A stretch of 64,000 nucleotides of DNA from Escherichia coli. GTDB taxonomy: Bacteria > Pseudomonadota > Gammaproteobacteria > Enterobacterales > Enterobacteriaceae. Every line of letters begins with the position of its first letter. Position 1 is the first letter of the stretch. The notes beneath the pieces were generated by a model. That model saw only the letters and a list, made by a program, of their open reading frames with translations, ran no database searches and was not told where the DNA came from. The stretch lies in the NCBI RefSeq assembly GCF_013315695.1, contig NZ_CP054353.1; one strand, given 5' to 3'. Below are positions 24,694 through 28,056 of this stretch, piece by piece. Both the position numbers and the translations under genes were made by a program.

Positions 24694-25821
24694 ATGATTA
24701 AGAAAATAAGCGTAAGAAAAGATCAGCTGGCATTACTCTCCAGAAATGGCGATTACTACAAAGTGCTGCATGCAGGCGAGCATCTTTTACCCTGGTTAAA
24801 TACGCCAGAAGTCTTGCTGATTACGCTCGATGGCAGCGAAGTTCCCGACGTGCTGGCGGATTATTTGCGCCGCTTTCAGCCTGATTGGGTGGAAAGATAT
24901 TGCGTGGTGGCCGACTTGTCGGAGACTGAAGCCGGGGCGTTGTATATGGACGGTATTTTGCTGGAGATCCTGCCGCCATCAACGCGTCGTTTGTACTGGC
25001 GTGTAGAGGATGATTTGACGCTGGTGCGGATGAATACGCAGCAAGTCCAGGTTCAAACGGAGGTGATGAATGCGGTATTGCAGCCACGGCGCAAAGGGAC
25101 TGTTAAAGGCCGCGATGCGATACTGACGGTGCAGGTTCCGGCCTGGCACGTAGGTGTACTGAAAATCGATGGTGAAACGCAGGCGCTGTTACCGCCGGGG
25201 CTGACTGCGTACTGGAAAATTAACCATCTGGTTGAAGCTGAAGTGGTTGACACCCGCTTGCAGGTACTGGAAGTCAGTGGGCAAGAAATCTTAACGAAAG
25301 ATAAGGTCAATCTGCGGATTAATCTCGCCGCTAACTAGCGCTACAGCGACGTGTTATTGGCATTTAGTCAGTTAACGAAGCCGATTGATCATTTGTATCG
25401 GGAATTGCAATTTGCACTGCGTGAAGCGGTAGGTACGCGTACGCTGGATGAGTTGCTGGAAGATAAACAAGTCATTGATGACGTTGTCAGCGAACAGGTG
25501 AAATCGCGTATGTTGCCATTTGGTATGGAGATTGCTTCATTAGGGGTGAAAGATATCGTCCTGCCTGGCGATATGAAAAATATCCTTGCGCAGCTGGTTG
25601 AGGCGGAGAAATCCGCGCAGGCCAATGTGATTCGTCGACGTGAAGAAACGGCAGCGACGCGTTCGTTACTCAATACCGCTAAAGTCATGGAAAACAACCC
25701 GGTGGCGTTACGCTTAAAAGAACTGGAAACGCTGGAGAGAGTGGCTGAGCGGATCGATAACATCTCTGTATTTGGTGGTCTGGATCAGGTTCTGCACGGG
25801 TTAGTGAATATCAAAGGATGA
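24694..25821 (+). pseudogene. SPFH/band-7 (stomatin-like) domain protein, interrupted by in-frame TAG at 25336-25338
   Basis: ORFs 24694-25338 and 25351-25821 are in the same frame separated only by TAG; downstream part carries SPFH motifs (GTRTLDELL, coiled-coil tail); AAGGA RBS. Confidence 0.75.
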
Positions 25822-25945
25822 GTCAAATGCCATTAAATGGAGTCAGTGCTGCGATGCGCGAACGGGTATCGCAGCAGTTAAAAGAAATAGAACGTCGCTA
25901 TGGCGTGAAAGTGCTGTACGCCTGCGAATCAGGCAGCCGCGGCTG
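25818..25945 (+). pseudogene. Pol-beta-superfamily nucleotidyltransferase, 5' fragment (disrupted by IS4)
   Basis: ATG at 25818 overlaps SPFH stop (ATGA); encodes MSQMPLNGVSAAMRERVSQQLKEIERRYGVKVLYACESGSRG then IS4. Confidence 0.7.
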
Positions 25946-27371
25946 TAATGCCAGTCAGTTAAGCAACTGACTGGCTCTTTTTCGGGGCTGTGGGGTATTT
26001 CCAGGGCCTCTCCTTTACCACTCTCGGGAAGGCCCTTTCCCTTCTTGTCGGTAATTTCACAAGTTGTCCCATACTTGCAAGATCGCGCATCAGCTCCGGT
26101 ATACGTCCCGGTGAAGCGCCCTGCAATGTCATCAGCATTCTCATCACCATTCCGCATGATTCTGAGAAACTCAGTTGATTCGGCCAGTAACCTTTCAGAT
26201 GTTCCGCCATTTTAATCATCTGATATCTCACCAGATTATAAGCCAGTAAGACACCCCACAGCTCTTGCTCCACAAGCTCCGGTTTTTTACTTCTCAGCGT
26301 CAGCCTGCTCAGTTGCATCGTCTGTTTTATCTCCCTGTATCCCAGTTCGATTTCCCAGCGATGACTGTACAGATCCGCCATTTCTCCTCCGGGGAAGCGC
26401 ATGGCGTCCGTCATCGACGTCAGCAGATGGCAGACTTTTCCTTTGCGCGTCACGGTCAGCAGGCGGGCTGTCACTTCATTTCCCAGTCCCGGCCACTTTT
26501 TTCGTGCCTGCGGGCTGGTTTTCAGCTTCACCAGATGATCGCCTTTACCCAGTTTTCTGATCTCTTCATATTGCGCTCCCTTTCTGAGAGGTATCATCCA
26601 GTGGCGGTGTTCTCCCGCCAGGCTCCAGGCATTTAACAGTCCCAGTGAGTAATAACCTTTATCCATTAACGTCAGAGTGTTATCGCCGGTTTGTTCTATA
26701 AGTTGCTCAGCAAGCTCATTTTCGCTGTTCTTCATCGTGCCGAAGGCTGCAGCCGTCAGCAGATGGCTGGTCAGTTCCATCTGGCAGACCATTTTGACCT
26801 GCGGGTAGAGCGCCGGGTTCCCGGCATGTGTCTGGCGGGGGAAGGCTGCATCGTTCTCTGGTGTATCCGGTGTGCGCCAGAACACACCATCGATGGCCAG
26901 CAGGGTCAGGCCGCACCAGTGCGGATGCGGCGTGGCGTTATGCCAGAGCTGCGCTGTTTTCGTGAACACGCGGCGGACAGCCTCACTTCCCAGGCGCTGG
27001 CGGGCCTGAATAACGGCACTGGGGGCAACGAAGGGGCGATTGCCCGGCAGCATGATGTCCAGGCGATTCACAATCTGGTGAAGAGGTTCTTTACGCTCAA
27101 GCGCCATGCCAACAATACACCAGACCATCATTTCGAGGGGAAGACGGCGCTTGCGTAGCGTTACAGTACCTGATTCGGCAAGGCAACGAGAGATGAGTTC
27201 GGGGTCGAGGTAATCCCCCAGAGAAGTCAGTGGGTTACGCAGAGAATCGTAACGGGATACCAGATCAAGAGCCTGTCCAATGTGCATAAAAAAATCCGGA
27301 AACAAGTGAGCGTTTCCGGATTCTTACACAGCCACTGGATCGGTCAACTGATCCTTAACTGATCGGCATTA
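25946..27371 (-). mobile_element. IS4 insertion sequence (1426 bp)
   Basis: 18-bp imperfect terminal IRs TAATGCCAGTCAGTTAAG / TAATGCCGATCAGTTAAG; flanked by 12-bp direct repeat CAGCCGCGGCTG (25934-25945, 27372-27383). Confidence 0.95.
25959..27287 (-). CDS. insG: IS4 transposase
   Basis: 442-aa product from [10 protein letters not shown]..., DDE transposase. Confidence 0.93.
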
Positions 27372-28056
27372 CAGCCGCGGCTGGGGATTTGCCTCGCCCG
27401 ATAGCGACTACGATGTACGGTTTTTGTATGTCCATCCGCTGGAATGGTATCTGCGTGTAGAGTCACCGCGCGATGTTATCGAGCTGCCCATCGACGACGA
27501 ATTAGATGTTTCCGGTTGGGAGTGGCGTAAGGCGCTGGGATTATTGAAAGGCGCGAATCCGACGCTGATAGAATGGCTGGATTCTCCGGTGGTCTATCAA
27601 CAAGATGAAGAAACGATAACGGCGCTTAAGGCAATGGTCCCAATGTGGTTTTCTTCGTTGCGTGCACGCTGGCATTACTATTCGATGGCGCAGAAAAACT
27701 TCCGCGGCTATTTGCAGGGCGATGAAGTTCGACTGAAAAAATACTTTTACGTGCTGCGCCCGCTGCTGGCCGTGCGCTGGGTCGAAGCGGGTAAAGGCGT
27801 GCCGCCAATGCGCTTTGCTGAGTTACTGGCAGGAAGCGAGCTTGATGCGCCGTTACGCGAAGAGATTGACGAACTGCTGGAGCGTAAACAGCGAGCGGGG
27901 GAGGCGGAATATGGTCCGCGCCGTCCTTTGTTACATGCGTTTATTCGCGCGGAGCTGGCGCGTGGGGAAATTCCACCGATTTTACCGGACAGTCGAGATG
28001 GAGATGTTCGGGAGCTAGATAATTTGCTGTATCAAACGGTAATGCGCCGGGCATAA
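27372..28056 (+). pseudogene. Pol-beta-superfamily nucleotidyltransferase, 3' fragment
   Basis: In-frame continuation WGFASPDSDYDVRFLYVHPLEW... completes the GS-x(n)-DxD NTase motif begun in the 5' fragment; reconstructed gene 266 aa. Confidence 0.7.

Follow-up and report, generated by a model that had tools for sequence, protein, structure and literature searches.

Bacterial RNA-repair (Rtc) operons that include a gene for an SPFH (Band-7) protein are the closest described relatives of a two-gene module located between yjbD and lysC in a 64,000-nucleotide stretch of Escherichia coli contig NZ_CP054353.1 (RefSeq assembly GCF_013315695.1), referred to here as the window. The module comprises an SPFH gene followed by a gene for a DNA polymerase beta-type nucleotidyltransferase. 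Related operons are exemplified by rtcR / PaFlo8-rtcB-rlaP-rtcA of Pseudomonas aeruginosa and by rtcR / SPFH-rtcB-rlaP of Phytobacter, Enterobacter, and Kosakonia. The regulator, RtcR, responds to tRNA 5' halves bearing a terminal 2',3'-cyclic phosphate, which activate it. RlaP derives its name from its association with RNA ligases; the two Pseudomonas enzymes studied, from P. fluorescens and P. aeruginosa, add one or two nucleoside monophosphates to RNA 3'-OH ends, and RlaP is needed for repaired, over-trimmed tRNA to regain aminoacylation. Homologues of RlaP have been found in phages as well. The PaFlo8 gene of P. aeruginosa has been reported as embedded in the rtc locus, and the description of Band-7 genes next to RtcB with a predicted tRNA termed b7a-tRNA (for "band 7-associated") is credited to Burroughs and Aravind (2016).

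Two other systems invite comparison. The analogous rsr-yrlBA-rtcBA operon of Salmonella, likewise under RtcR and sigma-54, joins a ring- or cage-type scaffold and a tRNA-mimicking RNA to repair enzymes, in this case Ro60 and tRNA-like Y RNAs with RtcB. Its scaffold is Ro60/TROVE, whereas that of the E. coli module is an SPFH protein; the module also has a nucleotidyltransferase in place of the Salmonella operon's ligase and cyclase, and no YrlA match was obtained in the window. The rtcR-rtcBA operon of E. coli K-12 has a sigma-54 promoter and upstream motif similar to those of the module but occupies another chromosomal site and includes neither an SPFH nor an RlaP gene. The leader of K-12 rtcBA (locus L086) is short and unstructured and gave no match to R2, the leader covariance model described below.

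On comparison with these systems, we consider it likely that the window pair is an inactivated, reduced (ligase-less) variant of the known Band-7/RlaP Rtc RNA-repair operon. Shared with such operons are orthologous proteins (identity reaching 82% for SPFH and 87% for RlaP), the gene order, the sigma-54 promoter, an enhancer-like motif, and the 5' domain of the leader RNA. The E. coli module differs from them in lacking rtcB, rtcA, and rtcR in cis and in retaining only the T-arm of the tRNA-like RNA; in the window copy, both genes are in addition pseudogenes. An initial annotation of the window, made from the sequence alone, had treated the pair as unnamed and as a probable phage defense or toxin-like module. 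The nucleotidyltransferase family, PF10127, does bear a name (RlaP), the combination of Band-7, RtcB, and tRNA-like RNA had already been described, and what stands at this position in many genomes corresponds for the most part to a known operon.

Genomic context of SPFH relatives

Species-representative genomes were scanned with an SPFH family alignment, which yielded 80 loci, and the 6 kb around each SPFH gene was searched by tblastn with E. coli RtcR, RtcB, RtcA, and RlaP. RtcB was encoded within this distance at 52 of the 80 loci, RtcR at 49, RlaP at 28, and RtcA at 18. The commonest order is a divergent rtcR, a spacer of 450 to 700 bp, and then SPFH-rtcB-rlaP(-rtcA), and many gamma- and betaproteobacteria encode an SPFH orthologue between rtcR and rtcB. 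The nearest relatives (Phytobacter, Enterobacter, Kosakonia, Siccibacter, and Pluralibacter) have the arrangement rtcR / SPFH-rtcB-rlaP, with SPFH proteins 74 to 82% identical and RlaP proteins up to 87% identical to those of E. coli; the 82% value is that of a Phytobacter protein whose gene lies between rtcR and rtcB. In four Enterobacterales, a divergent rtcR faces SPFH-rlaP with no rtcB. The E. coli module is thus the most reduced derivative of this arrangement, having lost rtcB from between its two genes and standing with no rtcR beside it.

A different neighborhood is seen for several SPFH homologues with no rtcR nearby. These adjoin same-strand arrays of ordinary-looking tRNA genes (loci L038, L072, L077, L066, L047, L025, L043, and L068, as well as the cyanobacterial loci L071 and L073-L076), with up to 18 genes in L072 and 11 in L038. 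These arrays suggest a broader association between SPFH genes and tRNA gene arrays.

Promoter and leader RNA

The 528-bp interval between yjbD and the SPFH gene holds a sigma-54 promoter, an enhancer-like motif, and a leader. The promoter pattern (TGGCAC-N5-NNGCW) occurs upstream of SPFH at 44 of the 80 species loci, including essentially all RtcR-adjacent ones; in Enterobacterales, the element is invariant and lies at -308 to -382 from the ATG. The window promoter resembles that of K-12 rtcBA, TGGCACgacggTTGCA. Located ~90 to 125 bp upstream of the promoter, the enhancer-like motif recurs at an equal distance in every rtcR-adjacent SPFH promoter from enterobacteria and Pseudomonas, and it resembles the region upstream of K-12 rtcBA, ATAAAAGACGATATTT.

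Between the promoter and the SPFH gene, the ~290-nt leader is a multidomain structured RNA with compensatory changes. Its 5' domain was identified with R2, a covariance model built from 11 enterobacteria, which also matches the corresponding site at Pseudomonas, Burkholderiales, and further loci; in the Pseudomonas and Burkholderiales leaders, the domain precedes one or more tRNA-like genes. In the alignment of this domain, pairing holds in 94% of cells, against 41 to 51% in slid controls, and double changes occur in 26 of the 27 pairs; the 94% and 26/27 values are inflated because the alignment was fitted to R2. An independent RNAalifold analysis of the 5' domain in the 11 enterobacteria found compensatory changes in 12 of 29 pairs. 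For the 3' part of the leader, RNAalifold placed compensatory changes in 18 of 32 pairs across 10 enterobacterial leaders.

Between these two parts lies a 15-nt segment that is an exact local match to the T-arm of R1, a model of b7a-tRNA, of which nothing further was matched. In strain 97-3250, a C-G pair of this T-arm is replaced by U-A, a compensatory change. ARAGORN reported no tRNA in the window leader. The 7-bp stem directly 3' of the T-arm covaries in enterobacteria (TTCATT/AATGAA, TTCACT/AGTGAA, and TTCGCCT/AGGTGAA). A circularly permuted tRNA formed by the T-arm and this hairpin was considered and rejected, as no equivalent of a D-arm or anticodon arm was found.

Across the family, one or more tRNA-like genes were detected upstream of SPFH at at least 45 of the 80 loci, by ARAGORN or covariance model. 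In loci outside the enterobacteria, one or two tRNA-like genes come after the promoter, often with aberrant anticodon loops, and full-length R1 matches occur there. Pseudomonas leaders (L015, L018, L049, and L070) have two tandem tRNA-like units ~350 to 450 bp upstream of SPFH, and many betaproteobacteria (L016, L017, L020, L032, L051, and L055) have a "mini" unit, consisting of just an acceptor stem and T-arm, ahead of a full tRNA-like one. Of the two, the mini unit seems to be the counterpart of the T-arm in enterobacteria. A search of the enterobacterial leader against Rfam 15 matched no family; SAM-III, SorX, and RNase P matches in the window leader were below threshold and were dismissed as chance. 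The Pseudomonas L018 leader gave Rfam tRNA matches and a subthreshold YrlA match (33.5 bits; gathering score, 69).

The SPFH and RlaP proteins

The initial annotation had proposed profile searches of the two reconstructed proteins, and these bore out its domain assignments. The SPFH protein matches Band_7 (PF01145) over residues 147 to 318 (E = 1.2e-23), and the restored nucleotidyltransferase matches PF10127 (RlaP; "RNA repair pathway DNA polymerase beta family") over model positions 1 to 248 of 249 (E = 3.3e-96). RefSeq names the former a "slipin family protein," stomatin and HflK/C match it best in both sequence and fold, and its NCBIfam matches were weak and confined to HflK/C. A Kyte-Doolittle scan detected no membrane anchor or hydrophobic transmembrane segment in the SPFH protein, the highest 19-residue mean being 1.13, in agreement with the initial annotation, which had remarked on the missing N-terminal anchor. 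In addition to the SPFH domain, the protein has an N-terminal, beta-rich region of ~140 amino acids that is conserved across the whole family. A word-indexed protein search was dominated by near-identical E. coli entries, and diversity was therefore sampled using proteins clustered at 50% identity. This search gave 542 clusters matching the SPFH protein at E <= 1e-30; alignments of the highest-ranking ones mostly spanned nearly the full length. Longer homologues (500 to 660 amino acids) carry extra copies of the N-terminal beta-rich unit.

An AlphaFold 2 model of the SPFH protein (predicted local distance difference test score, 85.5) has two beta-rich units at the N terminus, followed by the SPFH domain and a long C-terminal helix; a helix such as the one predicted is typical of ring- or cage-forming SPFH proteins. 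Among solved structures, only the major vault protein aligned with the model past the SPFH domain. In the model, the E. coli protein would share with the major vault protein its N-terminal beta-rich repeats, SPFH "shoulder," and long helix, whereas it is far smaller, has two repeats rather than nine, and gives a low overall TM-score (0.41). The N-terminal part of this likeness is at most suggestive. Vaults are soluble cages carrying small RNAs.

The restored RlaP contains the polymerase beta-type nucleotidyltransferase core, G[S]-x(n)-DxD, and the C-terminal helical region of the family. Its segment ESGSRGWGFASPDSDYDV is almost the same as the corresponding sequence of the Pseudomonas orthologue. 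With RlaP as the query, an NCBIfam search gave no match and a sequence search of the Protein Data Bank found no solved structure; a literature search by RefSeq protein accessions returned nothing.

Organization and decay of the window locus

The features of the locus are listed in Table 1. The 375-codon SPFH gene has a single in-frame TAG (positions 25336 to 25338) at codon 215, which is TGG (Trp) in intact E. coli alleles and encodes Trp in 31 homologues. The nucleotidyltransferase open reading frame, which opens at 25818 or 25827, is interrupted after 25945 by the insertion sequence IS4 and continues from 27384 to a stop at 28056; the insertion is bordered by a 12-bp target duplication, CAGCCGCGGCTG (25934 to 25945 and 27372 to 27383). 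With a nonsense codon in its SPFH gene and IS4 splitting its RlaP gene, the module in the window is nonfunctional. These lesions, the neighboring IS1, and the yjbD-lysC slot are all as the initial annotation had described them. The annotated locus in NZ_OZ547117.1 is identical and has the same decay; it is not an independent confirmation of the TAG.

Table 1. Features of the SPFH-RlaP locus (window coordinates)
Feature	Position	Strand	Remarks
yjbD	23893-24165	-	flanking gene
RtcR-type enhancer (upstream activating sequence)-like motif	24254-24292	+	TATCT-N5-GATAA-N4-CGATA-N6-GATAA
Sigma-54 (-24/-12) promoter, TGGCACgcttcTCGCA	24379-24394	+	conserved pattern; -315 from SPFH ATG
Leader 5' domain, three-way junction	24410-24493	+	covariance model R2, 76.3 bits, E = 1e-15
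T-arm remnant of Band-7-associated tRNA-like element, CGGGTTCGATTCCCG	24506-24520	+	model R1, 15.3 bits, E = 4e-4
7-bp hairpin directly 3' of T-arm	24522-24540	+	ATTCATT-CCTGA-AATGAAT
Leader 3' part	24570-24672	+	hairpin 24570-24594; long imperfect hairpin 24599-24672, ending just before Shine-Dalgarno sequence
Soluble SPFH/Band-7 pseudogene	24694-25821	+	TAG for Trp215; 82% identity to Phytobacter orthologue
RlaP (PF10127) gene, 5' fragment	25827-25945	+	allele-specific extra ATG at 25818 overlapping SPFH stop
IS4, complete, 1426 bp	25946-27371	-	transposase 25959-27305
RlaP gene, 3' fragment	27384-28056	+	Pfam match and open reading frame restoration
GC-rich hairpin across RlaP stop codon	28044-28065	+	read from sequence; also a spurious local SorX-stem match
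IS1, 768 bp, filling gap up to lysC	28117-28884	+	sequence and annotation
lysC	28922-30271	-	flanking gene

The initial annotation had proposed that the two genes are translationally coupled through an ATGA stop/start overlap. This overlap is confined to the window allele, the common E. coli alleles reading GGGTGAGTAACATGCC, and we therefore reject it as a conserved coupling signal. As ATGA is missing from other alleles, the ATG at 25827 (MPLNG..., 263 amino acids) is the conserved start of RlaP, which is also the RefSeq start and is preceded 9 nt upstream by AAAGG. What stands of the original observation is the close packing of the genes, as even this start lies only 5 nt past the SPFH stop. 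Downstream, the hairpin that spans the RlaP stop codon is kept in other E. coli alleles and is likely a terminator stem.

In the wider neighborhood, the sor operon, rluF, and yjbD lie on one side, and lysC, the lysine riboswitch, and pgi lie on the other, flanks that mark the site as chromosomal E. coli DNA. The riboswitch, upstream of lysC at ~30363 to 30559 (-) according to an identical RefSeq record, is an ordinary known feature. A further copy of IS1, 100% identical, is present in the window at 53696 to 54462 (-).

Distribution and selection in E. coli

Of 5426 complete E. coli genomes, 1631 (~30%) carry the restored pair, and in the loci examined it is chromosomal, single-copy, and located at the yjbD-lysC site. 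Together with its absence from the 252-bp yjbD-lysC gap of K-12 (L005, 3133 to 3384), this distribution upholds the view in the initial annotation that the two genes form a genuine, conserved module occupying an accessory slot. Of the 1631 carriers, 1623 retain at least 80% of the pair, and 2 of 30 listed carriers, the window locus included, are annotated as disrupted. Separately, rtcR-rtcB is present at the malT locus in 5424 of the 5426 genomes, so that carriers almost always have the regulator and the ligase in trans.

Among three E. coli alleles, the ratio of nonsynonymous to synonymous substitution rates (dN/dS) is 0.03 to 0.05 for SPFH and 0.06 to 0.11 for RlaP. These low values and the near-universal full length indicate that the genes are maintained by selection in the species and that the two lesions in the window are recent. 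The initial annotation had concluded from the double inactivation that the module is costly. This inference does not hold, because almost all carriers are intact, dN/dS is low, and both types of insertion sequence are mobile in the window strain, with a second IS1 copy in the window; the double knockout is recent local decay in a slot with two insertion sequences. The synonymous divergence (dS) of the window rlaP from two other E. coli alleles (L003 and L001) is 0.28 to 0.33, and that of SPFH is 0.15, with flanking core genes 97 to 99% identical. From sequence comparison, such high dS values suggest old allelic lineages or import from other species.

Compared with window positions 24166 to 24625, the K-12 gap still has degenerate stretches of both the enhancer-like motif (CGATAATTAATTAGAGATGCAGATAAAAA) and the leader (CCGATAAAGACGCTGG). 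Given these remnants, the "empty" site is a deletion scar rather than the ancestral state. One strain has a truncated SPFH gene. The rlaP-lysC gap is itself variable. In two other E. coli loci, it holds a 308-amino-acid zeta-toxin/PezT-family gene with no obvious antitoxin (L003, 5961 to 6887 [-]; L004, 4591 to 5520 [-]), and in another it holds a P2-like prophage (L001, 7940 to 13921). A PADLOC search with the zeta-like protein gave nothing relevant, and outside E. coli the zeta-like gene accompanied the pair at none of the 80 loci. In the window, the 60 bp preceding IS1 (28057 to 28116) match prophage-side sequence, from which we infer that IS1 probably mediated a deletion here.

Proposed function of the intact pair

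The most likely function of the intact pair is that of an RtcR-induced accessory to RtcB-mediated tRNA or RNA repair. In intact strains, a buildup of tRNA halves bearing 2',3'-cyclic phosphate ends would lead RtcR encoded at the distant locus to switch on the sigma-54 promoter of the module in trans. RlaP would then extend trimmed RNA 3' ends by one or two nucleotides before ligation, giving a usable tRNA. The soluble SPFH protein may form ring- or cage-shaped oligomers by which the repair reaction is scaffolded or confined, possibly together with RNA derived from the leader; such a pairing of SPFH protein and leader RNA would, by analogy, parallel that of Ro60 and Y RNA alongside RtcB in Salmonella. 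A more specific version of this proposal is that the leader is a stable noncoding RNA, descended from b7a-tRNA, that is loaded into a vault-like SPFH cage, with the resulting ribonucleoprotein and RlaP acting as an RtcR-induced trans accessory of RtcB. We regard this version as tentative and rather doubtful.

Several points weigh against the repair interpretation. At the yjbD-lysC locus, rtcB is absent from the window and from the four other E. coli loci examined, and yjbD stands in the place of an adjacent rtcR; with neither ligase nor rtcR in cis, the module would have to cooperate with the distant rtcR-rtcBA. Binding of RtcR to the motif at 24254 to 24292 is predicted from its sequence. The tRNA-like element has degenerated in E. 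coli and other Enterobacterales, the T-arm alone surviving, and in the parts of the literature consulted b7a-tRNA has had no experimental validation to date. No function has been demonstrated for any Rtc-associated SPFH protein, and deletion of PaFlo8 in P. aeruginosa gave no phenotype under the conditions tested. Finally, the product of RlaP is a 3'-OH end, which is not directly ligatable by RtcB, a problem acknowledged by the authors of the RlaP study.

Alternative explanations

The reading closest to the initial annotation is a stand-alone conflict module, antiphage or toxin-like, in which the nucleotidyltransferase is an effector that nucleotidylates a target or makes a signal and the SPFH protein is a scaffold or sensor. 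The variable slot, empty in K-12 and next to a zeta-toxin-family gene or P2-like prophage elsewhere in the species, would fit such a module, as would its occurrence in only 30% of E. coli genomes and the RlaP homologues carried by phages. However, neither protein matched any PADLOC-DB 2.0 family at E <= 0.1, orthologues of both sit inside rtcR / SPFH-rtcB-rlaP operons, and the activity of the two tested Pseudomonas RlaP enzymes on RNA 3' ends is compatible with repair. The intact state of the genes under purifying selection in almost all carriers and the absence of a zeta-like partner from all 80 loci outside E. coli tell against it as well, and we consider a conflict module unlikely. The link to conflict is sound to the extent that the family of the module responds to RNA damage inflicted in biological conflicts, whereas a defense or toxin role for the pair itself is unsupported.

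Quite unlikely, too, is that the pair is a functionless remnant across E. coli, drifting toward deletion after the loss of rtcB and rtcR, of which the window would represent a late stage. Such a history could account for the 70% of E. coli genomes that lack the pair, the K-12 deletion scar, the truncated SPFH gene of one strain, and the degenerate tRNA-like element, but drift is hard to reconcile with dN/dS of 0.03 to 0.11 although allelic dS reaches 0.33, with full length in 1623 of 1631 carriers, or with a promoter, enhancer-like motif, and leader structure conserved through compensatory changes. The RefSeq product name and the stomatin and HflK/C matches in sequence and fold could alternatively mark the SPFH protein as an ordinary membrane-microdomain scaffold (slipin/HflKC-like) regulating a protease or transporter, with the nucleotidyltransferase as an unrelated neighbor. 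We find this very improbable, given a protein with no hydrophobic anchor (maximal hydropathy, 1.13), no NfeD or FtsH gene among the annotated neighbors in the loci examined, a family-wide extra N-terminal beta-rich region of ~140 amino acids, and consistent linkage to rtcR, rtcB, and tRNA-like RNA.

Significance

The window copy is dead and therefore has no physiological importance in this strain. For the species and the family, the interest lies in the reduced Rtc variant that the intact pair most likely represents. A minimal SPFH-RlaP pair in ~30% of E. coli, with rtcR-rtcBA elsewhere on the chromosome, offers a genetically tractable system in which to ask if a second promoter is under RtcR control in trans, if the SPFH protein builds a cage with RNA inside, and if RlaP and RtcB cooperate in tRNA repair. 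The chief new by-product of this analysis, alongside the idea of a split Rtc regulon, is a covarying leader RNA that has no Rfam family. If the ribonucleoprotein proposal is true, the module would establish such a split regulon and, with it, a bacterial counterpart to vaults or to Ro-Y RNA particles.

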